Of a DNA stretch of 64,000 nucleotides, positions 3,134-51,723 are shown in pieces. This DNA is from Patescibacteria group bacterium (GTDB lineage: Bacteria > Patescibacteriota > Patescibacteriia > UBA9570), in contig JBAZWO010000003.1 in assembly GCA_041660305.1 (NCBI GenBank), positions 8,705 through 72,704 on the forward strand, in the 5' to 3' direction. The stretch's first letter is position 1, and the number at the start of each line of letters is the position of its first letter. The position numbers were made by a program, and so were the translations under genes. Under the pieces are notes generated by a model. It was given only the letters and a program-made list of their open reading frames with translations, was not told the origin of the DNA and searched no databases.

Positions 3134-5293
3134 CTATCTCACCACACTCGTAGTCGCCTGCAAACCATCTAGTTGTTGTAAAAATTCAGTTCCTTTGGGT
3201 AAATTAATCGTAAAACAGCTACCTTTATTGACACCGGCACTAGTAAAGGTGAGTGTACCACCCGAAGCAATCACAATCTTTTTAGCATTATGAACCCCTA
3301 ACCCAGACCCGTTAGCATGGTAATCAATAATATTTTTGCCACGATAAAACTTTTCACCAATATGTTTGGCTTCTTCCACATCAAAACCTCGGCCTTGGTC
3401 TTGAATTTGAATCTGTACATGACCATTGGGTTGCTGAGTAGCGGTAATGGTTACTATTCCATCATGACCATACACAATAGCATTGTGAATTAAGGCTGAG
3501 AGCACTGTCGTGAACTTCTCAGGGTCACTGGTAATACGAGGCAAGTTCGGTTGCACAGTGACATTCAATTTTACTAGTTTAGCTTGAGCAAGCGGTTGTA
3601 GTTGTTGAATCACGGTTTGTAGTACGGTAGCCACATTCACAGGGGCAAAATTCATGTTAGCGGTATTACCTTCTAAATGCGCTGCATCAAGCATGCCTTG
3701 CACAATGCTCTGAAATTCCTTAATGCGAGGCGATACTCCTTTAATATAAGATTGGATTTCTTGCACACCTACGTCTCCCTCTTCAATCATGGCAAAGGCA
3801 CTACGGATAATACTCAAGGGGGTGTTAAATTGATGGTCCACGATATGTAAAAACTCTTCCTTCATGCGTTGTAATTCTGTAATACTCAGCTTTAGATTAT
3901 TGCGTTCACGAGTTAATTCATCGACTCGGTTACGGTATTGAGTAAATAAAATAGATTTAGTAACAGCCATCGCTAAGGCAGGGCTAATTTTGGTAAATAC
4001 AGTAATATCTTCACTGGTATAGGCAGTGTTACGTTGTTTGGAGCCTAAAATAATAAATCCTACTAAATCATTGGAGAGAATTAACGGAATACATACCCCA
4101 TCGGTGAGTGGTGCAAAAGCTTGTTGTAACTTGGTATGAATGGGTGAGGAGAGATAGGGTAACTCACTAATGACCAGAGTTTCTTTCGTTTTTACAAAAT
4201 AATCATAGACGAATTGATGCAAGGCAGATTCTGTCCAAATACCTAATTTAGCTAATGGAATATTTTTAGCTTTATAAATGTGATAGGTACGTTTAATTTG
4301 GTCATCAATGACGACAAAAGCAAAACCTTGAATATGCTGGAGTAAGAATACTCGCTCAATACTATTAATCAATAGCTCAAAATCAGTGATAGTAGAAGCA
4401 GTGTTACTTAATTGGGTTAAAGCTGTATGGAAGCGAAAGGTAGAAGAAAATAAGATATAGCCAAGGCAGGTGGTGTTAAAAATATATTCTAATAAAGCAT
4501 GTAGGACAATAGCAGTGAATATCACAATAATGCCAATAGTAACAGGAGCAATAGTGGTAAAATCATGAAAAAGGTAGGCTAGTATGGTAACAATAGCAAT
4601 AGTAAGAATGACGGGTAGAATCGTGTTAATCAGACGTTGTGCTTGAATTTGAATATCAAACAGGCGGTGTTTAATGATGGAGTAGCTCATTCCACCAATT
4701 ACAATAAGAGTGGCAAAAACACCAATATGATTATAAGCTGGTTTACCTACAATAATGGGAATAATTAAGTTAATAGTAAACGCTAAAACTATTCCAATAA
4801 TAAAGCTGATAGCAATATAAAGGATTTGTCGTTTTTGAATAGCTGTAGCATTACTATATTGTTGAATGAAATAATAAATAGCCAACAAAAATAAAAAAAT
4901 AAAATAAATAATATAGACATAAACAAAATAGCCAAATTCTAATTCAGGAAATTTTTTTACTACTAAACTAGTTAACGATATAGCCGATATTATGAAAGTA
5001 AGACTCAGTAAAATCCATTGGGATAACTTTTTGCTATTATCTTCTTTAGGAAAATATTGGAAAAATAAACCTAAGGTATAAACAATAAAAATACCAAACA
5101 GAAAAGTTAAACGTGCGAACAGAAAACTAGAATAGTTGATGAATACAATAGTACTAACACCCCAACCCGTAATAAAGAAGGACAACCAGAAAAAAATGCG
5201 ATTAGCTTTTTTATGAATATTGTAAAATAAAACAACCCCTCCCAATAGAAGATTTAGAGCTACTATAATGAACGAAACTACAGACCAAAACAT
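3134..5293 (-). CDS. Sensor histidine kinase (multi-TM N-terminus, GAF-like middle, HisKA + HATPase_c); no adjacent response regulator
   Basis: ~300 aa of TM helices. H-box EFLHIVDHQFNTPLS, N-box LIHNAIVYG, G-boxes DQGRGF and GSGLGV. Confidence 0.85.
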   Translation of the reverse strand: MFWSVVSFIIVALNLLLGGVVLFYNIHKKANRIFFWLSFFITGWGVSTIVFINYSSFLFARLTFLFGIFIVYTLGLFFQYFPKEDNSKKLSQWILLSLTFIISAISLTSLVVKKFPELEFGYFVYVYIIYFIFLFLLAIYYFIQQYSNATAIQKRQILYIAISFIIGIVLAFTINLIIPIIVGKPAYNHIGVFATLIVIGGMSYSIIKHRLFDIQIQAQRLINTILPVILTIAIVTILAYLFHDFTTIAPVTIGIIVIFTAIVLHALLEYIFNTTCLGYILFSSTFRFHTALTQLSNTASTITDFELLINSIERVFLLQHIQGFAFVVIDDQIKRTYHIYKAKNIPLAKLGIWTESALHQFVYDYFVKTKETLVISELPYLSSPIHTKLQQAFAPLTDGVCIPLILSNDLVGFIILGSKQRNTAYTSEDITVFTKISPALAMAVTKSILFTQYRNRVDELTRERNNLKLSITELQRMKEEFLHIVDHQFNTPLSIIRSAFAMIEEGDVGVQEIQSYIKGVSPRIKEFQSIVQGMLDAAHLEGNTANMNFAPVNVATVLQTVIQQLQPLAQAKLVKLNVTVQPNLPRITSDPEKFTTVLSALIHNAIVYGHDGIVTITATQQPNGHVQIQIQDQGRGFDVEEAKHIGEKFYRGKNIIDYHANGSGLGVHNAKKIVIASGGTLTFTSAGVNKGSCFTINLPKGTEFLQQLDGLQATTSVVR

Positions 5294-9948: not shown

Positions 9949-10707
9949 TTAATTATTGTCAGGTAAGGGATTGAATTTATTTCGTAGTAAAGTATATCTT
10001 TGTACTTTTTGCTTTTGTCGAATAAATAATTCACTAGATAATAATAAACTAACAAAAAACGTAATAACATTCATTAATAATAAAAAAACTACAATACTCC
10101 AAATGGTGTTTGGTAAAAAGCTAAATAAATTTTTAGCTTCATCGAGTAATCCCATTAAATTTAATGCTTCCAAAACAACCACTGAACCAATAAGCGTATA
10201 AAGTATATAAACTGATAATAAGAGTAACTTATAAGCAATTTTGTAACGACACTTAACTGTTAAAATATAAACCCCTTTGTCGGTTATTTTAAATTTTGTT
10301 GCATCCCATAATATAGCACCAACTGCATGTCCTTCTTTGGTAAGAACGCATTGGTATTCTTTATCATTAGGAACATGTCTGGCAAAACCACGTTCCACTA
10401 AATTCATGAACACCCATTCTCTTTTGATATGCAACGATTGCAATTCATCATGTTTAATTAACCATTGTTCAAAGCGAGCAAAAGGGCTGCCTAATACTAG
10501 CGCCGTTTCACTCTTAATAGGATGGAATAAATGCTTATGACCTAAGTAGGACCAATACAGAATTTTCTTTTCAATTTGCCAAGTAGGATAAGCATCCTCT
10601 GTTCCATTCATCAATTGTAATTTTTCCTGGCGTTCCAACTTTAATAGCAATTCCAAATAGTGTAATCGAGTAAAAATGTTAGTATCTACTAGAGGTAAAG
10701 TAGGCAT
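9949..10707 (-). CDS. Membrane-anchored protein (soluble ~160-aa N-terminal domain + 2 C-terminal TM helices)
   Basis: TM segments LLLLSVYILYTLIGSVVVL and IWSIVVFLLLMNVITFFVSLLL. Its start lies 10 nt after the stop of the Mrr-like gene. Confidence 0.5.
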   Translation of the reverse strand: MPTLPLVDTNIFTRLHYLELLLKLERQEKLQLMNGTEDAYPTWQIEKKILYWSYLGHKHLFHPIKSETALVLGSPFARFEQWLIKHDELQSLHIKREWVFMNLVERGFARHVPNDKEYQCVLTKEGHAVGAILWDATKFKITDKGVYILTVKCRYKIAYKLLLLSVYILYTLIGSVVVLEALNLMGLLDEAKNLFSFLPNTIWSIVVFLLLMNVITFFVSLLLSSELFIRQKQKVQRYTLLRNKFNPLPDNN

Positions 10708-44858: not shown

Positions 44859-45617
44859 ATGGACCTGCAAAAAACTTTGCAACAGCTTGGTTTAGCGCCT
44901 AAAGAAGCACAGGTTTACTTGGCTTGTTTGCAGTTGGGCTGCGCTTCGGTGTTGCAAATTGCCAAATTTGCCGGCTTAAAGCGCCCAACGGTTTATTTAA
45001 TTTTAGACAATTTAGAAGCGCGCGGCTTGGTAAGCAAAACTAAAGATATTAAGAAAAATTTATTTAAAGCCGAAGAGCCAAAGCGTTTGGTAATGGATTT
45101 ACGCAACCGGCAGGAATTGGCTAATCATATATTGCCATCTTTGCAGGCCATTTATAATTTAGATCCGGAAAAACCTAATATTAAAATTGGCGATGGCACA
45201 TTAAGCGTACGCAATGCTTATAACGGAATTTTTACTTATATATCCAATCATCCCAATGAAGAATTATTGATTTTCGGCTCGTTGAAAGACGCTTCGCAAT
45301 ATTTTGAACAGGAAGTGATAACTTATTTTTATGAAAAAATGGCTCGATCGCAAAACCATATTCGCGAAATCGGCAACGATGATCATGAAACCCGTAAATA
45401 TTACCGTGCTTCACGTCGCCTAAACGCTAATCATGATATTCGGTTAATTCGCAATGAAGGCGCGTTCTGGAAAGCAGATAACATGCTGTACGGCAATACT
45501 TTGGTAATATTTTCCGTAAAAGATCAGGTATTTGTTATTACTATAGAATCTAGCAACATTACTACTACCTATCGTACCCTCTTCAACATGGCCTGGCGTA
45601 GTGGGAAAAGAATTTGA
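44859..45617 (+). CDS. TrmB-family transcriptional regulator (paralog 3)
   Basis: LAPKEAQVYLACLQLGCASVLQIAKFAGLKRPTVYLILDNLEARGLV. Confidence 0.75.
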   Translation: MDLQKTLQQLGLAPKEAQVYLACLQLGCASVLQIAKFAGLKRPTVYLILDNLEARGLVSKTKDIKKNLFKAEEPKRLVMDLRNRQELANHILPSLQAIYNLDPEKPNIKIGDGTLSVRNAYNGIFTYISNHPNEELLIFGSLKDASQYFEQEVITYFYEKMARSQNHIREIGNDDHETRKYYRASRRLNANHDIRLIRNEGAFWKADNMLYGNTLVIFSVKDQVFVITIESSNITTTYRTLFNMAWRSGKRI

Positions 45618-45650
45618 CAAAAGGCCAAATATAACTTATCCTGTACATAT

Positions 45651-46220
45651 ATGTACAGGATAACTAGAAGAACTGATTATGTGGCCATTCTTTTAAAAGA
45701 AACCCGGCAAATTTTTCATACGCAGGATTTAATGGTGTTATGGGGAATCTATAATAAAAATACACTTTATACTACTATTAAGCGTTATGTGCAAAAGAAA
45801 ATTTTATACTCCATCCAAAAAGGTTTATATAGCACCGTACCAATTAATCAGCTAGACGACTGGGAGCTAGGATCCAGATTAATACATGATTATTCTTATA
45901 TTAGTTGTGAAACTATATTGCATAACGAGGGTTATATTAGTCCATACATGTACAAAACTGCTTTGGTCAGCAATCAAGCTAAACAATTTGAAATTAATGA
46001 AAAATATTTTTATAGTAGAAAGTTATCGAAAAAATTTTTGTATAATCCTGCTGGAATTAGTCGAGATAAAAATGTTTATGTAGCTTCACCAGAAAGAGCT
46101 ATAGCCGATTTACTCTATTTTAATCCATCAGCTTACTTTGATAGACCGATTAACTGGCCAAAAGTAAAAAACATCCAGCAAGCAGTTGGCTACCAATTAA
46201 CTCCAGAAATTTATGATTGA
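45651..46220 (+). CDS. AbiEi-like antitoxin (pair 3)
   Basis: ...IQKGLYSTVP...SYISCETILHNEGYI...ASPERAIADLLYF. Confidence 0.6.
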   Translation: MYRITRRTDYVAILLKETRQIFHTQDLMVLWGIYNKNTLYTTIKRYVQKKILYSIQKGLYSTVPINQLDDWELGSRLIHDYSYISCETILHNEGYISPYMYKTALVSNQAKQFEINEKYFYSRKLSKKFLYNPAGISRDKNVYVASPERAIADLLYFNPSAYFDRPINWPKVKNIQQAVGYQLTPEIYD

Positions 46221-46950
46221 ACCAAAACAATTAGATATTCTACACAAAGCTAAACTATTTGCCGTGTTACAAGCTGTAGCGGATAATGCGTATCTTTGTA
46301 CCACATTACGTTTTAAAGGCGGTACTTACGCTGCTTTGATGGGCTACTTAAATCGGTTTTCTGTTGATCTTGATTTTGATTATATTGACGACATGATCAA
46401 TTTACCAAAAGCTAGAGCGAATATTGAAACACTAGCTCAACAACTTGAATTAAACATTAAAGATCAAAGCCAAAATCACTTACAATATTTTTTTCAATAT
46501 CAAGCAGATAATCATAAACGTAATACTTTAAAACTCGAAGCCTATGCTCCAGCACCCAAAGCCAATGAATATATACCGGTGTATTTTCCTGAAATTGATC
46601 GCACGTTACAATGTGAAACAATTGAAACTATGTTTGCTAATAAACTAGCAGCCGTGTTGGGAAGATATCGTAAACATAAACGTATTGCCGGCAGGGATAT
46701 TTTTGATGTTAGCCAGTTTTTCCAACAGAAATTTCATTATAAACCAGAAATATTATTAGAAATTTATCCAGAATTCACTATTAAAGAATATTTTGCTAAA
46801 ATCATTACCTTAATAAAAACACAGGTTTCCCAAAAGATAATTGATGAAAATCTTAATATGCTGTTATCTCCTCTACAATTTCAATTATTAAGAAAAACTA
46901 TCAAACAAACCACATTAGATTATTTACAACAAGAATACGCTAAATTTTAG
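46213..46950 (+). CDS. AbiEii-family nucleotidyltransferase toxin (pair 3)
   Basis: FKGGTYAALMGYLNRFSVDLDFDY. Overlaps the AbiEi-like gene by 8 nt. Confidence 0.75.
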   Translation: MIEPKQLDILHKAKLFAVLQAVADNAYLCTTLRFKGGTYAALMGYLNRFSVDLDFDYIDDMINLPKARANIETLAQQLELNIKDQSQNHLQYFFQYQADNHKRNTLKLEAYAPAPKANEYIPVYFPEIDRTLQCETIETMFANKLAAVLGRYRKHKRIAGRDIFDVSQFFQQKFHYKPEILLEIYPEFTIKEYFAKIITLIKTQVSQKIIDENLNMLLSPLQFQLLRKTIKQTTLDYLQQEYAKF

Positions 46951-46986: not shown

Positions 46987-48093
46987 TCAACGCACAGACA
47001 AAGATTCTGCTGTGTAGGTAATGTTTTTTGGTAGAATAGTTAAACTTTTAGTGTGACTGGCCTGCACGTAACCAGCGTCAATGGCTTTGATGTTATTTTT
47101 AGAGCAAATAGCCAAAACGGCTTGAACATTATCTGGAGCAATGTATAAGGCAAAGCCGGTTCCCATATTAAATGTTCCATACATTTCTTTGTCATTCAGG
47201 CTGGATTTTTCTTGAATAAAATTAAATATTGGTAATGGTTCGAATATATTTTCAAGCACATAGGCAAATGGTTCAACTGCTCGCATAATTTTTCTTAAAC
47301 CGTGGCCAGTGATATGTGAAACGTAATGTAATGCAATATTGTTAGCGATGCAATCTTTGAGAATTGGCACGTAGATAATACTAGCATCAAGCACGGCTTC
47401 TCCAAACATTCTGCCGTCAGACAACTTAGTTTGATATCCCTCTGGTATTTCAGATGCAATTTTACGGCACAAACTAGCTCCATTAGCATGGATGCCAGAG
47501 CTTTCCAATAATATTATTCTATCCCCAGCTTGTAGATTGGTAGAACGAATGATGTTCTTTTTATCTTGAATAATGCCGGTAGCCGAACCAGATAATAACA
47601 CCGTATCTTTTTGTACAATGTCTTTAAGAGTTGGTGTTTCTCCACCGGCCCAAACTGCCGAAGATAAATCACAGCCTTTTTTCCAACCAGCTACTAAATC
47701 TTTTTGTCTTTGGTTGTCTGCAAACCAGTGTGAATCACCCACTGCTAAATGCATTGCTAAAGACATAGGTAGAGCCCCCATAGTTATTAGATCATTTACA
47801 ATTGCTCCAACTGTGTCTATAGCAATATTATCGTAGTAGGATTTATTGGTTATCTTGTACATAGCATCTGCTATTAAATTCTTTGTGCCCAATGTTTCTT
47901 CCACATGAGCAATATACCCCATGTTTGTTTCTATCAAAAAAGCGCTTTCTCCACGACTAGCGGACACTTCTTTTAAGTGAAGATAATCAATATTGCCATC
48001 TGTTGTGGCTGCCGCTTGTTGAGCGGCTATTTTAAAGGGATCTAATAAATCATAATGTACACCACTGGATTTATAGTCAATTTTTTTCGTCAT
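46987..48093 (-). CDS. AIR-synthase-related (PurM-family) protein
   Basis: Collinear with PurM: LGTKN...IDTVGAIVNDLITMGA...GGETP...SSGIHANG...HITGHG...MYGTFNMGTGF. Confidence 0.6.
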   Translation of the reverse strand: MTKKIDYKSSGVHYDLLDPFKIAAQQAAATTDGNIDYLHLKEVSASRGESAFLIETNMGYIAHVEETLGTKNLIADAMYKITNKSYYDNIAIDTVGAIVNDLITMGALPMSLAMHLAVGDSHWFADNQRQKDLVAGWKKGCDLSSAVWAGGETPTLKDIVQKDTVLLSGSATGIIQDKKNIIRSTNLQAGDRIILLESSGIHANGASLCRKIASEIPEGYQTKLSDGRMFGEAVLDASIIYVPILKDCIANNIALHYVSHITGHGLRKIMRAVEPFAYVLENIFEPLPIFNFIQEKSSLNDKEMYGTFNMGTGFALYIAPDNVQAVLAICSKNNIKAIDAGYVQASHTKSLTILPKNITYTAESLSVR

Positions 48094-48206
48094 AAGGCTT
48101 CATATTATGTTAAATTTTATTAAAATTCATTATAGCAAAAAACATCAACTAAGTCTTGGTGGACTTGACCAACTTTATGTTTTACGATAGTGTAGATTAC
48201 GCTTTC

Positions 48207-48280
48207 GGCCCGTTCGTCTAATGGTTAGGACATCAGGTTTTTCCGCCAGAGGCGGATCCGCCTCTGGCGGACAACCTGTA
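48207..48280 (+). pseudogene. 5' fragment of tRNA-Glu (acceptor 5' strand through the anticodon stem) with a 30-nt perfect palindrome inside the anticodon
   Basis: 48207-48241 and 48272-48280 are identical to 48551-48585 and 48586-48594 of the intact tRNA-Glu. They are interrupted by TCCGCCAGAGGCGGA|TCCGCCTCTGGCGGA (48242-48271). No T-arm follows. Confidence 0.6.
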
Positions 48281-48287
48281 TATATGT

Positions 48288-48542
48288 ATGCATTATCTCT
48301 ACATTTTACAAAGCTTGCGTGATAATGGTTATTACATTGGCATTACGGAAAACATTGAACAGCGTTTAAAAGCGCATAATGCTGGTAAAACAAAATCACT
48401 TCTTGCTCGCTTGCCAGTTGTCTTGAAACATATTGAAAAATATGATACTACAACTGAAGCGAGAAAAAGAGAAATTCAGCTTAAAAAGAATTATCAATTG
48501 CGTAAGCAATTATTAACTCAATTAGGCTTTGTGCTAAAATAA
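48288..48542 (+). CDS. Small GIY-YIG nuclease-family protein
   Basis: YLYILQSLRDNGYYIGITENIEQRLKAHN...R..E..LK is the GIY-YIG core (GIY ... YIG ... R ... E). Confidence 0.85.
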   Translation: MHYLYILQSLRDNGYYIGITENIEQRLKAHNAGKTKSLLARLPVVLKHIEKYDTTTEARKREIQLKKNYQLRKQLLTQLGFVLK

Positions 48543-48550
48543 CTTTATAT

Positions 48551-48622
48551 GGCCCGTTCGTCTAATGGTTAGGACATCAGGTTTTCAACCTGTAAACGGG
48601 GGTTCAATTCCCCCACGGGCTA
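48551..48622 (+). tRNA. tRNA-Glu (anticodon TTC), intact
   Basis: Acceptor GGCCCGT/ACGGGCT, D-arm GTCT-AATGGTTA-GGAC, anticodon stem TCAGG/CCTGT with loop TTTTCAA, T-arm GGGGG-TTCAATT-CCCCC. Confidence 0.9.
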
Positions 48623-48656
48623 CTAATAATTACAGTGTTCTAAAATGTCCACAGTT

Positions 48657-48741
48657 GGGGTTCTCCGCCTGAGGCGTCAGCCTGAGGCTGATCCGCCTTA
48701 GGGGGAGATCCGCCATTCGGCGGAAATTCCCCCACGGGCTA
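48657..48741 (+). pseudogene. 3' fragment of tRNA-Glu (T-arm + acceptor 3' strand) with a ~61-nt insertion of TCCGCC...GGCGGA-type hairpin modules in the T-loop
   Basis: GGGGTTC + [48664-48724 insert] + AATTCCCCCACGGGCTA, versus GGGGGTTCAATTCCCCCACGGGCTA in the intact gene. Confidence 0.55.
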
Positions 48742-48812
48742 CTGATATACTTTTAGTTAAAAAACACGGGTGCATTTTTGGCAAAACAGTTTTATCTTGT
48801 ATACTTAATAAC

Positions 48813-51020
48813 ATGGTAGAAGGAGGCGAACGTTTATTGCGTAACAATGAATGGATGCATGATTATGCTAAGTTTTTAATTAACGGCTTAAAGCAACAGC
48901 CAGCGTTTTCAACTGAACAACTTATTACTTTAGTTAATCAAACTAATATAGAAATCGATCAACGCTTCAATGATCAAGCCGATCAAGCGCGCTTGGTTTT
49001 TGTTCAGGAGTTTACTCAAGCCACAGTTCAGGCTACACGAGAAAATTTAGAGCAAGCATGCACATTATTATCGGTTGGGCCGGAAGTATTAACTATGTCA
49101 AACGGCATGTTAGCACGGCTGCCTATTGTAGATCAGTTACAATGTGTGGTTGAGATATTTAATAATACTGCGCTTGAACGGTGGCATGAACCAATGAATA
49201 ATCATTTATTGAATAAGCTTGATCTGGCTACGGATACTAGTTTAGAACAAGTTGTGACTGCTACGTTAGAACAACCGTTAGGCGAAACTTTGCCAGTACT
49301 TTGTGCCTTGGAACGTTTGTTGGAATCTGCCCAACCAGCCGAACGGCCATCCCTATATAAGATAATTAATTCTATTGCGGAACGGTCAGACCAGGCTTTT
49401 TTACGCTATGCCTGTGCTACTTTGCAACCGCAATTAGTGGAAGAAGAGCAACCAGTTGATCTGTTAATGATGCAACCAGATCAATCGACTAGGGTATCTT
49501 CAGATTACGTGGCTTTACTGGGTGATTATAATATAATTCGCGGTTTAGCACCTGAATTAGATTCTGTTCGGCATTATCAAGATGTGGAAGATATCATGCA
49601 AGATCCTATGGTATTACCATTTCAAGGCACAATTGATAGTGCTGAAATAGCTAACGTATTTACCTATCTGCATCGACCAAAGATGCGCTATTATCTTGAA
49701 CAAACGCTTCATTTGCGACTAGACCAATTATCGTTACGCAGTCAAATCCAATTATTAAATTACCTTACTGCTAGCGAATCTAACGTTGGCACTTTTGAAG
49801 CAACCGCAACTAAACCAGAATTAAACACGCAACAGTTTGCCGAAAGTTTTTTTGCTGCTACGGAACAACCGCAGCTGGCGGATCAATTATTGCATTTTGC
49901 GCAAACGTTTCCAGCTGAGCAGGTTAATACAGTACTGCAACACTATTTAGCCATCATTTCTGAATTAAACAATGTTGAACAGCGTATTCACGATTTTTTT
50001 GTTTCACCTGGGCAAGCCGATACGGTTGATACTAGAATAGTAGTACAAGAAACATTACGGCGAGCTAATCGTGTTTTACAATCTGCTATATGCGCTGATC
50101 AAACTATAAACTTTCAAGAATTACAGAAAAATTTGACAGCGATTAAAAAAGACGCGATTATTTTTGGTGCAATGTGTTGGGCAGTGCTACGACATCAGCC
50201 AGAAGTAACCTTAGAACAACTACGTGATTTTTCGGTTGAACAACTAGCATATACTGAATTATCCGAGGAGTATAAAAAATCTATGCTTGCTATTTCAAGC
50301 GATAATCATCCAGATACGCCAAATACTGTAGAGGGACTAGCAAACATTCTATCTCCCAAAACTGCAACTGAAACAACTCTTGCTCAACGTAATCGTTTTA
50401 TTTTTGTGAAACATAAGAATAAGATAGTTTCTTTCATTCGTATTGAAAATCGTGGTTCTGAACAATATCTTGCTAGTTTTAATGTTGACAAAACGTTACG
50501 TGGCTCTGGAATTGGTGAGCAGTTAGGATTATTTGCTTTAGAAGGATTAAGACAAGATCCAACTGTGCAATTAATTTCAGCTGATGTCTTTCCTTTACAA
50601 CAACCTATTATTCGGTATATGCGAGCAGGTTTTGTTGGAATGCATTTTACTATTGATCCTACAGCAAAAGGGAAGGAAGCTGCTTGGATTGAGATGAAGC
50701 TAACACAATCCCCTAATGCATATAATTTACAAAAGAAAACGATCCAGGAATTATTAGCTTTAGCTGAACAGCAGCATCAAATTGATGATTATACTACCTT
50801 AGCCAAACGACAGGAACCGACTATTGTGCTGCTGCTTGATTTGACGCAATCAGTTGCTTCGCTAAATTCAATCTTCCAAACACTCTTAAATCATAAGCCT
50901 CAACCTTATTGTTTAACTCGTTATGAATGTTTGGATCGAACCTGTTCTAAGCGTCTGGCAGGATTTGAAATTAAAGATGTTGCCATACAAACTCAAACAG
51001 CTTCTTCTGTTGCCGCGTAA
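48813..51020 (+). CDS. Large hypothetical protein with a C-terminal GNAT acetyltransferase-like domain
   Basis: Residues ~540-640: FIRIENRGSEQYLASFNVDKTLRGSGIGEQLGLFAL is a GNAT motif A-like R-G-x-G-I-G. The rest is uncharacterised. Confidence 0.5.
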   Translation: MVEGGERLLRNNEWMHDYAKFLINGLKQQPAFSTEQLITLVNQTNIEIDQRFNDQADQARLVFVQEFTQATVQATRENLEQACTLLSVGPEVLTMSNGMLARLPIVDQLQCVVEIFNNTALERWHEPMNNHLLNKLDLATDTSLEQVVTATLEQPLGETLPVLCALERLLESAQPAERPSLYKIINSIAERSDQAFLRYACATLQPQLVEEEQPVDLLMMQPDQSTRVSSDYVALLGDYNIIRGLAPELDSVRHYQDVEDIMQDPMVLPFQGTIDSAEIANVFTYLHRPKMRYYLEQTLHLRLDQLSLRSQIQLLNYLTASESNVGTFEATATKPELNTQQFAESFFAATEQPQLADQLLHFAQTFPAEQVNTVLQHYLAIISELNNVEQRIHDFFVSPGQADTVDTRIVVQETLRRANRVLQSAICADQTINFQELQKNLTAIKKDAIIFGAMCWAVLRHQPEVTLEQLRDFSVEQLAYTELSEEYKKSMLAISSDNHPDTPNTVEGLANILSPKTATETTLAQRNRFIFVKHKNKIVSFIRIENRGSEQYLASFNVDKTLRGSGIGEQLGLFALEGLRQDPTVQLISADVFPLQQPIIRYMRAGFVGMHFTIDPTAKGKEAAWIEMKLTQSPNAYNLQKKTIQELLALAEQQHQIDDYTTLAKRQEPTIVLLLDLTQSVASLNSIFQTLLNHKPQPYCLTRYECLDRTCSKRLAGFEIKDVAIQTQTASSVAA

Positions 51021-51723
51021 CACCTGGATGAGAAATAACAAAAGCCATTAGATGATCTTGATGGACTGTTAAATATGATATAGTATCATCATAAATTTCC
51101 ATGGCTATATCAAACTGATACTTATTGGCTGGTAAAAATTTTATTTTAGTAAAAGCATTAACAGTTTCTGTGTTAACTGTATGGGCAGCTGGGGTATCTA
51201 CCATAATAATTTTTTTGTGAATTCGACGTTTTAATCTTTCCATTACATATTCTTGATTCATCTGTTTACCATATTGCTGAATAATATCCTCATTTACATA
51301 CGTATAAATAGTATCGTGTGTTTTAAGCGAATCGTATAAGGCTTGCTTCAGGCCAGCTTCGCCTTCAAAGAATTGAATACCAGGTTTGCCAATGGAGATA
51401 TTATATAATCCTGTTAATTGTTCGATGTGCTTTTGTATATCGTGAGCAATTAATTCGGCTTCTTGTTTTTTCTTTTCAGCAACCATCATTAAAGCATGTG
51501 GATGAGTGATTTGATAAAACACCGATCGGCCGGCTTTTTTATATTCAACCAAACCTTGTTTTTCTAACGCATGCAGCGCTTCATAAACCGTTACTCGGCT
51601 AAACCGAGATTTATTAATCAAACGAGTAACATCAATCTTGCCTGCCTGGCAAAGCAGTAAGTAAATTTCAATGTCCGTAGTAGTAAATCCGCAAGCGTTA
51701 AGAGTTTGTTCAATCGAAGGCAT
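50971..51723 (-). CDS. TrmB-family transcriptional regulator (paralog 4)
   Basis: FTTTDIEIYLLLCQAGKIDVTRLINKSRFSRVTVYEALHALEKQGLV and the shared motif FFEGEAGLKQALYDSLKT. Confidence 0.75.
   Translation of the reverse strand: MPSIEQTLNACGFTTTDIEIYLLLCQAGKIDVTRLINKSRFSRVTVYEALHALEKQGLVEYKKAGRSVFYQITHPHALMMVAEKKKQEAELIAHDIQKHIEQLTGLYNISIGKPGIQFFEGEAGLKQALYDSLKTHDTIYTYVNEDIIQQYGKQMNQEYVMERLKRRIHKKIIMVDTPAAHTVNTETVNAFTKIKFLPANKYQFDIAMEIYDDTISYLTVHQDHLMAFVISHPGVTRQQKKLFEFVWQHL

Follow-up and report, generated by a model that had tools for sequence, protein, structure and literature searches.

By analogy of behaviour, the studied system nearest to the locus described here appears to be SegB of phages T4 and T6, a GIY-YIG protein of about 220 amino acids (aa) that includes a DNA-binding part. 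Published accounts describe T4 SegB as recognising a T-psi-C stem-loop motif of tRNA genes and driving the inheritance of the tRNA region (PMC2330249), and they connect SegB, which co-localises with tRNAs in phages, to segmental tRNA-gene amplification (PMC13096335). SegB spreads by break repair and takes the tRNA sequence beside it along. Here we describe a locus at positions 48207-48743 of a 64-kb stretch of DNA (64,000 nucleotides (nt); the whole stretch is called the window) from a Patescibacteria contig (JBAZWO010000003.1 of assembly GCA_041660305.1), in which an open reading frame (ORF) for an 84-aa GIY-YIG protein lies between partial and intact copies of a tRNA-Glu gene. We hold with moderate confidence that this locus is a member of a widespread group of selfish, free-standing nuclease cassettes nested in a partly duplicated tRNA gene, whose dead tRNA pieces are occupied by hairpin elements of a dispersed 30-bp double-hairpin family.

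The likeness to SegB lies in a GIY-YIG gene that is found amid tRNA genes or beside them and is not carried by an intron, and in tandem partial tRNA copies, which were present in loci L003, L019, L032 and L043 of our comparison set (L numbers denote the loci that were fetched and P numbers the protein homologues). SegB is encoded by phages and belongs to the Seg/I-TevI type, whereas the 84-aa protein of the present locus is cellular, consists of the catalytic domain only and falls in the UPF0213/Slx1 branch; for neither the fixed 5' duplication nor the hairpins was a SegB counterpart found in the accessible parts of the two reports (PMC2330249, PMC13096335). In rRNA genes of the candidate phyla radiation (CPR), non-intron intervening sequences with GIY-YIG or LAGLIDADG ORFs sit at the tops or bases of stem-loops (PMC11270868). 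These CPR insertions and the present locus share the host group and have nuclease ORFs in structural RNA genes, outside group I/II introns; tRNA, hairpins and palindromes are not mentioned in that report (PMC11270868). The CPR rRNA inserts are tolerated or excised, whereas here the host tRNA is kept working by partial duplication and the leftovers carry double hairpins. In the fungal mitochondrial genes atp6 and rps3, endonuclease genes insert while carrying a duplicate of the displaced part. As in these cases, the host gene here stays functional via a copied segment and a displaced pseudo-fragment lies alongside; the fungal examples are organellar protein genes with LAGLIDADG or larger GIY-YIG enzymes, whereas here a bacterial tRNA gene has its 5' part duplicated. 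We found no prior description of a tRNA-nested mini GIY-YIG layout or of the hairpin element in the literature searched, which left most subscription journals outside its coverage, so that an earlier description is possible. The first-pass annotation, a note made from the letters of the window, had likewise known of no system with this layout.

The features of the locus, read on the + strand from 47900-49100 and compared piece by piece by script, were as follows.

48207..48241, + strand: partial tRNA-Glu copy, positions 1-35; 35/35 identical to 48551-48585 (blastn-short E 4e-15)
48242..48271, no strand assigned: double-hairpin insert, a perfect 30-nt palindrome (TCCGCCAGAGGCGGA followed by TCCGCCTCTGGCGGA), between anticodon bases 35 and 36
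48272..48280, + strand: partial tRNA-Glu copy, positions 36-44, CAACCTGTA; 9/9 identical to 48586-48594
Between 48280 and the ORF start at 48288: spacer, 7 nt
48288..48542, + strand: gene of the 84-aa GIY-YIG nuclease family protein, catalytic domain only (Pfam PF01541, 58 bits)
48513..48540, + strand: promoter-like site TTAACT-16 nt-TG-TAAAAT (consensus scan), inside the ORF's 3' end, 10 nt upstream of the intact tRNA
Between the ORF end at 48542 and the intact tRNA start at 48551: spacer, 8 nt
48551..48623, + strand: intact tRNA-Glu(UUC), the working copy (ARAGORN; Rfam tRNA 65.9 bits, full-length)
Between the intact tRNA-Glu and the 3' fragment: spacer, 33 nt
48657..48663, + strand: partial tRNA-Glu copy GGGGTTC; 7/7, matching 48599-48605
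48664..48724, no strand assigned: 61-nt composite hairpin insert between T-loop positions 56 and 57, TCCGCCTGAGGCG / TCAGCCTGAGGCTGA / TCCGCCTTAGGGGGAGA / TCCGCCATTCGGCGGA
48725..48743, + strand: partial tRNA-Glu copy, positions 57-73 plus two flanking bases, AATTCCCCCACGGGCTACT; 19/19 identical to 48606-48624

As evident from this list, the unit of about 540 nt runs 5' to 3' from a tRNA-Glu 5' fragment through the GIY-YIG ORF and the intact tRNA-Glu to a 3' fragment. The five parts named in the first-pass annotation (two fragments, ORF, intact tRNA and spacer) were all recovered in the same order and at the same coordinates with ARAGORN, Rfam, Pfam and exact repeats (35/35, 9/9, 7/7 and 19/19), and the length of the spacer behind the intact tRNA was adjusted from about 35 to 33 nt. 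The piece at 48207-48241 comprised the acceptor 5' strand, the D-arm, the anticodon stem 5' strand and the loop up to the second anticodon base, and the piece at 48272-48280 held the remaining anticodon loop, the anticodon stem 3' strand and one extra base. On the 3' side, GGGGTTC contained the T-stem 5' strand (4 of 5 G) and T-loop bases 54-56, and 48725-48743 contained the T-loop 3' part, the T-stem 3' strand and the acceptor 3' strand; over the longer span 48725-48747, the repeat was identical at 22/23 positions. These tRNA-fragment matches far exceed chance. The two inserts that interrupt these fragments at 35/36 and 56/57, the most unusual feature of the locus, had been overlooked. Nor would the two fragments together make one whole tRNA-Glu, as had been proposed, since the four nucleotides AACG (variable loop and first T-stem G) are absent from the outer pieces. 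The Rfam tRNA match at 48551-48622 reached 65.9 bits against a gathering score of 29; the gene at 48551-48623 was the only one called at the locus by ARAGORN and Rfam, which left the fragments undetected even at E<=10, and it was the sole tRNA-Glu found by ARAGORN within the window. The early suggestion that loss of the element would remove tRNA-Glu in an addiction-like manner was not supported: if the 35-nt direct repeats recombined with each other, the cassette would be lost and a complete tRNA-Glu would stay behind, so addiction does not follow.

The 30-nt palindrome consists of two 15-nt units, TCCGCC-AGA-GGCGGA and TCCGCC-TCT-GGCGGA, and its predicted fold lengthens the anticodon stem by 13 bp (-36 kcal/mol, z -8). 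The 61-nt T-loop insert is made of about four hairpin-like units, and the region 48650-48743, which includes this insert and its tRNA flanks, has a predicted fold of -54 kcal/mol (z -5.3). Units of the TCCGCC...GGCGGA type were not found in the remainder of the window. Promoter calls in the window are consensus matches only. The sequence TTGACC at 48165, which had been read as the resident tRNA promoter, was followed at 17 nt only by TAGTGT (3/6) and was left uncalled by the promoter scan. Additionally, an 11-nt direct repeat (TGTGCTAAAAT and TGTTCTAAAAT) was observed at 48530-48540 and 48636-48646, 10 nt upstream of the intact tRNA and again 10 nt upstream of the 3' fragment. Its first copy forms the -10 part of the promoter-like site inside the 3' end of the ORF; the 3' fragment may derive from a tandem copy of promoter and tRNA, or the repeat may be a chance match in AT-rich DNA.

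The position of the anticodon insert bears on whether the outer tRNA could itself be functional, with its inserts removed as group I or archaeal-type introns or its halves joined in trans. Self-splicing group I introns have been described at 35/36 of tRNA-Asn and tRNA-Asp in Patescibacteria (PMC13011429), and one full-length tRNA-Leu with a hairpin insert was found in locus L135. We nevertheless give this explanation almost no weight. An Rfam scan of 48000-48900 returned no intron family at E<=10, which also disposed of a known RNA family, group I introns included, as an identity for the region; a 30-nt hairpin is too small for a ribozyme core, and the ORF fills the remainder. In addition, four nucleotides of the outer tRNA are missing, most loci are without a 3' part, and an intact tRNA always adjoins.

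We then considered the protein itself, which matched Pfam PF01541 over residues 1-71 (58 bits, cut-off 22.6). The residues Y5, Y16, R26, H30 and E62, which are unchanged in 21 relatives, are the conserved GIY-YIG catalytic residues, and we take them to correspond to Y6, Y17, R27, H31 and E75 of I-TevI. A PDB profile search with the family revealed the UPF0213 proteins BH0048 and EF2693 (1zg2 and 1ywl) at 1e-12, whereas the same profile matched SLX1 nuclease domains at about 5e-4 and I-TevI at 0.16. The AlphaFold2 model had a predicted local distance difference test (pLDDT) score of 94, and its order of elements, E-E-H-H-E-H-H, was that of the GIY-YIG fold, in which helices flank a three-stranded sheet. 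Upon comparison with Foldseek, the model ranked 1zg2 first and Slx1 next (TM 0.65-0.69, root mean square deviation of about 2 Å), with UvrC and I-TevI far behind (probability for I-TevI 0.15-0.21). The score against TIGR01453, the NCBIfam model of group I intron endonucleases, was 14.6 bits with a cut-off of 56. The catalytic domain filled all 84 aa, leaving no C-terminal DNA-binding region of the kind that marks a classical homing endonuclease. Judged from sequence and predicted structure, the protein thus appears to be a catalytic-domain-only GIY-YIG protein of the UPF0213/Slx1 (YhbQ/YazA) branch rather than of the I-TevI/Seg type. UPF0213/YhbQ/YazA proteins and the Slx1 domain gave the best sequence and fold matches, with the same size and the same catalytic residues; Slx1 has an extra zinc-finger domain and needs Slx4. 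Neither a function nor a tRNA linkage was described for the bacterial UPF0213 family in the literature searched. That the 84-aa protein is an active nuclease, and what its target would be, we infer from these relationships and from its surroundings. The locus behaves as a free-standing homing cassette, yet its protein departs from classical GIY-YIG homing enzymes both in its lack of a DNA-binding domain and in its nearest relatives.

The protein search yielded 40 relatives, mostly of 84 aa and mostly from Patescibacteria, and a database protein identical to that of the window was annotated from a Patescibacteria metagenome-assembled genome (MAG). Four database homologues (P0013, P0022, P0023 and P0029) carried an N-terminal extension of about 22 residues reading MVRTSGFSAGGGSASGG, a reading that is also open in the window at 48221-48322. 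The extension was rejected as a protein domain: MVRTSGFSAGGGSASGG is the translated tRNA 5' fragment plus hairpin, reached by gene-caller read-through, and these public-database N-termini are therefore artefacts. A phage origin was likewise rejected, as the family gave 1 match among 2.9 million viral contigs and only ordinary Firmicutes UPF0213/YazA genes were found in phage and plasmid collections.

To place the layout among other genomes, we used 80 species-level genome loci that had been retrieved via protein alignment and one peptide pattern and do not form a census; tRNA position numbers were derived from the anticodon and are approximate past the variable loop. A survey of small GIY-YIG ORFs for tRNA halves plus a full tRNA had been suggested at the outset, and it revealed a recurrent layout. 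An intact tRNA on the same strand, whose first base fell between -30 and +40 nt relative to the ORF stop, was present in 56/80 loci; 48 of these tRNAs were Glu, and Ser, Asp, Tyr, Trp, Met and Gln were also represented. A 5' partial copy of the adjoining tRNA lay <=200 nt upstream in 55/80 loci, and a strict GC-rich double hairpin was found 20-140 nt upstream of the start codon in 44/80. A downstream 3' fragment was seen in 11/80 loci, and both fragments together, as in the window, in 10/80. Given 55/80 loci with a 5' fragment and 11/80 with a 3' fragment, the history first put forward, a single tRNA split by an insertion of about 375 nt, is only one of those possible. The split had also been placed between the anticodon stem and the T-stem, whereas 3' fragments in L018, L049 and L051, as in the window, start in the T-loop between 56 and 57. 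In most loci, positions 36-43 were kept after the insert. Two 5' fragments were found in L002, L012 and L046, two ORFs in L023, L066 and L081, and two copies on one contig in L023, L056, L066 and L081. Tandem hairpin-bearing 3' parts that included the downstream flank were present in L003, L019, L032 and L043, and ORF-less derivatives were seen in the middle copy of L002, in L106 and in L166.

The 3' fragment downstream of an intact tRNA is also the usual scar of an integrase-mediated island (PMC9897764), and the locus might be the remnant of such an island or of a prophage in tRNA-Glu, with the attachment-site tRNA repeats left behind. This is very hard to credit. No integrase, recombinase or island genes were found among the neighbours, the main repeat is the upstream 5' fragment and not a 3' repeat, the unit measures only about 540 nt with 33 nt between tRNA and 3' fragment, and the layout recurs with a nuclease gene and not with an integrase. 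The absence of a recombinase and the 5' duplication effectively refute the integrase island.

Some loci departed from the common layout in ways that we record as observations. In many loci (L016, L018, L025, L045, L047, L053, L057, L068 and others), the ORF overlapped the intact tRNA by 14-21 nt, and its stop codon was the TAG of the D-arm sequence GTCTAG; with the stop inside the tRNA, an RNase P cut at tRNA +1 would strip the last codons and the stop from the mRNA. Perfect inverted repeats of 12-16 nt bracketed the intact tRNA-Glu in L009 (around 3240-3340), L047 and L048. They differed by locus (TTATAAACATTTTCTT ... AAGAAAATGTTTATAA in L009) and would form a long stem enclosing the tRNA; a processing stem and the ends of an element are both possibilities. 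At L082:5150-5700, a different GIY-YIG gene of 76 aa lay directly downstream of an intact tRNA-Lys(CUU), and partial tRNA-Lys copies, two upstream and one downstream, had the anticodon arm swapped for the hairpin CTCCGC-TAAA-GCGGAG; this arrangement is a second layout of the same theme. At L126:5978-6650, a tRNA-Arg(UCU) 5' fragment with a single long D-loop hairpin (CCTGCCTGCCGGCAGGCAGG) was followed by a GIY-YIG ORF and an intact tRNA, and the same contig had a dispersed double hairpin at 9973 in a 506-codon frame. Finally, at L211:915-2142 (minus strand) and in L212-L218, a LAGLIDADG gene ended inside a tRNA-Ser(CGA) with its stop TAG in the D-arm. A tRNA-Ser-like fragment of foreign lineage lay upstream, with several hairpins before it, and the unit stood back to back with the GIY-YIG/tRNA-Glu module on contigs that carry P0039. 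The tRNA-nested design is accordingly common to two nuclease families.

The distribution of the ORF and its tRNA pieces contained several signs of movement. In a neighbour-joining tree of the ORF, Patescibacteria were intermixed with Bacteroidota (on contigs of 3-5 Mb) and with Bdellovibrionales and Gammaproteobacteria MAGs. The tRNA isotype, which divided into Glu, Ser and Asp groups, tracked the ORF clade, and so did the hairpin stem type, with TCCGCC/TCCTCC in one clade and TCACCC/TCAGCC in another that included Patescibacteria hosts. Neolewinella strains carry the tRNA-Asp version. When 38 fragments were compared with the neighbouring tRNA over positions 1-35, nine were identical and six were one base off, whereas the 5' halves of intact tRNAs from different loci were only about 79% alike. 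In L029, L047, L074 and L075, the fragment belonged to another tRNA-Glu lineage than the adjoining intact gene.

We searched for an empty site in the form of an uninterrupted tRNA-Glu in relatives, a check that the first-pass annotation had itself proposed, and found none. Homologues of the AIR-synthase-like flank were <=81% identical, except for a partial copy from the same species, and gave no empty site. Among six contexts checked, only L082 kept the neighbouring 707-aa gene; this sole syntenic relative was without the whole module, and its 443-nt gap held no tRNA and was not alignable to the window. The flank protein of the Bacteroidota locus L042 had no match at E<=1e-40 and so yielded no empty site there. 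In eight contexts of the identical protein P0039, the module was unchanged, and no strain-level polymorphism was seen.

These data can be set against ordinary decay, in which a tandem tRNA-Glu duplicate decayed, hairpins landed in it and a resident UPF0213-type gene is co-transcribed, nothing being mobile or targeted. UPF0213/YazA/YhbQ genes are ordinary chromosomal genes in many bacteria, hairpin elements insert widely, protein genes included, and ORF-less duplicated tRNAs with hairpins exist. We consider decay unlikely, because about 50 species from different phyla share the three-part layout and its exact hairpin site (24/43 mapped inserts between 35 and 36), and because 15/38 fragments had at most two mismatches to the neighbouring tRNA (at least 33 of about 35 positions identical), although the 5' halves of tRNAs from different loci differ by about 20%; pseudogenes of long standing would have diverged. 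Movement is also suggested by foreign fragments, multi-copy contigs and phylum-mixing ORF clades. Taken together, the recurrent combination of fragment, ORF and intact tRNA, the clade mixing, the foreign fragments and the LAGLIDADG parallel favour a homing-type cassette that keeps one working tRNA. The early proposal of a homing-type element with its own tRNA copy therefore stands in part: the association recurs in dozens of unrelated genomes, with phylum-mixing clades and foreign fragments, and the nuclease lacks the classical homing features.

We mapped 43 hairpin inserts in 33 loci, 24 of them between anticodon bases 35 and 36 and the others in or edging the D-loop (9-23), in the T-loop (55-57) and once at the T-stem/acceptor junction. 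All 43 lay at loops, loop edges or helix junctions, and none lay well inside a helix, the deepest being at 12/13, ahead of the last (wobble) D-stem pair. T-loop inserts at the window's position were also present in L019, L037 and L003. The insert in tRNA-Ser(UGA) was again at 35/36 despite differing bases, and that in tRNA-Leu(UAA) was at 34/35. The usual form was two abutting hairpins, TC-N4-loop-N4-GA and YC-N4-loop-N4-GR, whose stems varied by locus yet stayed complementary (CCGCC, CACCC, CAGCC, CTCCT, CAATC and others); under a two-hairpin model, 7/12 stem pairs were changed on both sides. The 100% stem pairing is partly circular, because doublets were selected for pairing, and the independent evidence lies in compensatory changes and loop-to-loop complementarity only. 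The latter averaged 65% where about 25% is expected, and the column pairs 17-30 and 15-32, which were not used for selection, were paired in 27/27 and 22/27 sequences. Complementary loops make the insert close to a 30-bp palindrome. Because it is a palindrome, both strands fold equally well, and a test for RNA versus DNA folding returned 22 G-T and 17 A-C mismatches in a noisy set. Within 425 kb of loci, GC-rich doublets occurred almost solely in tRNA pieces beside the ORF, the exception being L053:2282.

Such structure could suggest a functional RNA, that is, a tRNA-like leader that regulates or stabilises the nuclease mRNA or guides the nuclease by pairing with tRNA-gene DNA. The spared helix interiors, the anticodon stem kept on both sides of the insert and the covarying hairpin stems are in line with this, as are the fixed distance of 16-27 nt between fragment and start codon, the fragment isotype, which always equals that of the adjoining tRNA, and a protein without any targeting domain. 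We regard it as quite improbable, since fragments with hairpins were also seen behind the tRNA, within tandem arrays and at loci that have no ORF, and since doublets were found in both orders.

The same hairpin doublet was also found far from tRNA genes. An exact-pattern scan of metagenome contigs, presumed to be Patescibacteria, with TCCGCCNNNGGCGGAYCCGCCNNNGGCGGR revealed at least 120 metagenome stretches, and the element has the 30-bp consensus TCCGCC-N3-GGCGGA-YCCGCC-N3-GGCGGR. The matches listed comprised 83 sites in 80 loci (L091-L170; for example L097:9575-9604, L107:680-709 and L091:1381-1410); among them, 2/83 had a family GIY-YIG gene within 4 kb, and 43/83 lay in open frames of at least 150 codons, where the element mostly read SAxGGSAxGG (10 aa). 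The host frames, which were read off translations, included DnaE, UvrC, LysRS, FtsK, RtcA, Asd and the CCA-adding enzyme, and RtcA and Asd were checked against the PDB. In RtcA, the element was a clean 10-residue insertion relative to PDB 4o89, and in Asd it fell at an alignment gap with the PDB homologue. That the hairpins are kept in frame in proteins suggests translation and not splicing, a further point against removal as introns. The flanks of the element were typically TT^...^AA. Several ORF-less tRNA loci carried the element as well. L106 had tRNA-Tyr positions 1-35, a hairpin, positions 36-44, 40 nt and an intact tRNA-Tyr; L166 had tRNA-Val 1-17, a hairpin and an intact tRNA-Val; and L117 had a T-loop hairpin fragment behind a tRNA-Ser. 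At L135:2300-2950 (minus strand), three tandem tRNA-Leu(UAA) copies were observed. One was intact, whereas a 3' partial copy and a full-length copy each carried the double hairpin at 34/35; the full-length interrupted copy differed in its D-arm and variable arm.

The double hairpin is a small dispersed palindromic element, similar in kind to the Rickettsia palindromic elements (RPE), with no homology implied. RPE and the double-hairpin elements (DHE) or GC clusters of fungal mitochondria are short GC-rich dispersed palindromes that fold into hairpins and that protein genes accommodate in frame and RNA genes in their variable parts; no enzyme is known to move them. The present element shares the short GC-rich palindrome, the dispersal and the in-frame tolerance, a likeness of kind in which homology is not expected. 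It differs from RPE and DHE in its 30-bp unit of 2 x 15 nt (TC..GA / YC..GR), in the peptide SAxGGSAxGG and in its Patescibacteria-type contigs, and its tight association with a tRNA-nested nuclease gene is a new feature. No report linking such palindromic elements to Patescibacteria was found in the literature searched.

This link raises the possibility of a partnership in which the mini GIY-YIG protein, as an Slx1-like structure-specific nuclease, would move the 30-bp palindromes in trans, the gene-side copy being the master end, in a manner comparable with the repetitive extragenic palindromic (REP) sequences and their REP-associated tyrosine transposases (RAYT). Folded tRNA-gene strands would expose loops, and partial tRNA duplications would be the survivable outcome. 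We regard this as a real though minor possibility. Hairpin doublets were found at nearly every ORF locus while the ORF was near only 2/83 of the dispersed sites listed, an asymmetry expected of autonomous and non-autonomous elements; the stem type tracked the ORF clade even in those Patescibacteria hosts whose ORFs group with the Bacteroidota ones; in fold and sequence the protein comes closest to Slx1, a cutter of branched and stem-loop DNA; 43/43 mapped inserts lay at loops, loop edges or helix junctions; and hairpin-carrying ORF-less tRNA duplications exist. On the other side, GIY-YIG enzymes are hydrolytic and strand-transfer chemistry is not known for them, the window has the gene and yet no dispersed hairpin in its other 63 kb, and the LAGLIDADG gene in the same tRNA-nested layout indicates that the layout can do without this nuclease. 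A REP/RAYT pair in the strict sense was rejected, as the gene is GIY-YIG and not HUH (Y1) and only the flanking palindromes are in common. A bolder version, which we offer as speculation of low probability, would make the mini GIY-YIG gene and the 30-bp palindromes a two-component mobile system with its master copy in the tRNA. The autonomous nuclease gene would cut exposed loops of folded single-stranded DNA, non-autonomous hairpin units would be pasted in, the in-frame SAxGGSAxGG insertions in housekeeping proteins would stem from this system, and the UPF0213/YhbQ family would gain a first function.

Returning to the nuclease cassette that we favour, its spread could proceed as follows. The nuclease would cut DNA in or next to a tRNA gene, and the break would be repaired by recombination with a cassette-bearing copy, for which the conserved tRNA sequence would provide homology. 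The upstream 5' fragment would pair to the left of the break and the downstream intact tRNA to the right. The ORF would thereby be copied in with a duplicate tRNA 5' part, so that one intact tRNA is always left and the host survives. Further rounds of self-cutting and repair could account for the 3' fragments and tandem partial copies seen at some loci, in the manner demonstrated for phage SegB. Hairpins at 35/36, in the T-loop and in the D-loop would be passed on with the cassette and interrupt the direct repeats. Such a repair route would explain why the order is fixed, why ORF and tRNA adjoin so tightly, why 5' fragments predominate and how tandem 3' copies come about; host-matching fragments would arise because they served as the left arm, and foreign fragments because the cassette was carried over. 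The 3' fragments that start between 56 and 57 hint at the T-loop as one breakpoint. The hairpins are the least explained part. Inherited with the cassette, they cut the direct repeats into short pieces, and they could shield the cassette from deletion or re-cutting; alternatively, they could mark cut sites of a structure-specific nuclease on folded single strands.

Several points weigh against this cassette. The protein is without a DNA-binding domain, and its nearest relatives, UPF0213/YazA/YhbQ and Slx1, are not known homing enzymes; sequence-specific cleavage of tRNA genes is an assumption because the protein lacks the DNA-binding domain of a classical homing enzyme. Viral contigs contain almost no members of the family, so that the parallel with SegB is one of function and not of descent. 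No pair of empty and occupied orthologous tRNA-Glu sites was found, so that insertion boundaries and mobility are read from distribution. A nuclease that targets tRNA genes would also meet the adjoining intact copy, and self-immunity is left unexplained. The ORF-less hairpin-bearing duplications in L106 (Tyr), L166 (Val), L117 (Ser) and L135 (Leu) imply that duplication and hairpin can come about, or be retained, where the ORF is absent. A simple colonisation of dead DNA would not predict that the hairpins lie in loops only or that their type follows the ORF clade. Finally, the taxon labels on short MAG contigs may be wrong.

The module is flanked by an AIR-synthase-like gene, which was nearest to Peregrinibacteria sequences, and by a GNAT gene. 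Further out (44859-46950 and 50971-51723), the neighbourhood contained an AbiEii-domain gene at 46213-46950 with a 189-aa ORF before it, perhaps a toxin-antitoxin pair. Pfam also marked two TrmB/MarR-like regulator genes there.

On the practical side, such loci yield false N-terminal extensions in gene calls. If the nuclease cassette that we favour is real, tRNA genes of Patescibacteria, Bacteroidota and other phyla would host compact selfish nuclease cassettes, which, through partial duplication of their host gene, could reside in an RNA gene that is essential and has no intron. Examples of this strategy are known from a few protein genes of organelles, but for bacterial tRNAs we found no description of it. 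The 30-bp elements, in frame in essential proteins, would parallel the Rickettsia palindromic elements, which belong to another reduced-genome lineage. The locus would also offer a first genomic clue to what the widespread, uncharacterised UPF0213/YhbQ/YazA family does and would tie this family to Slx1-type structure-specific cutting.

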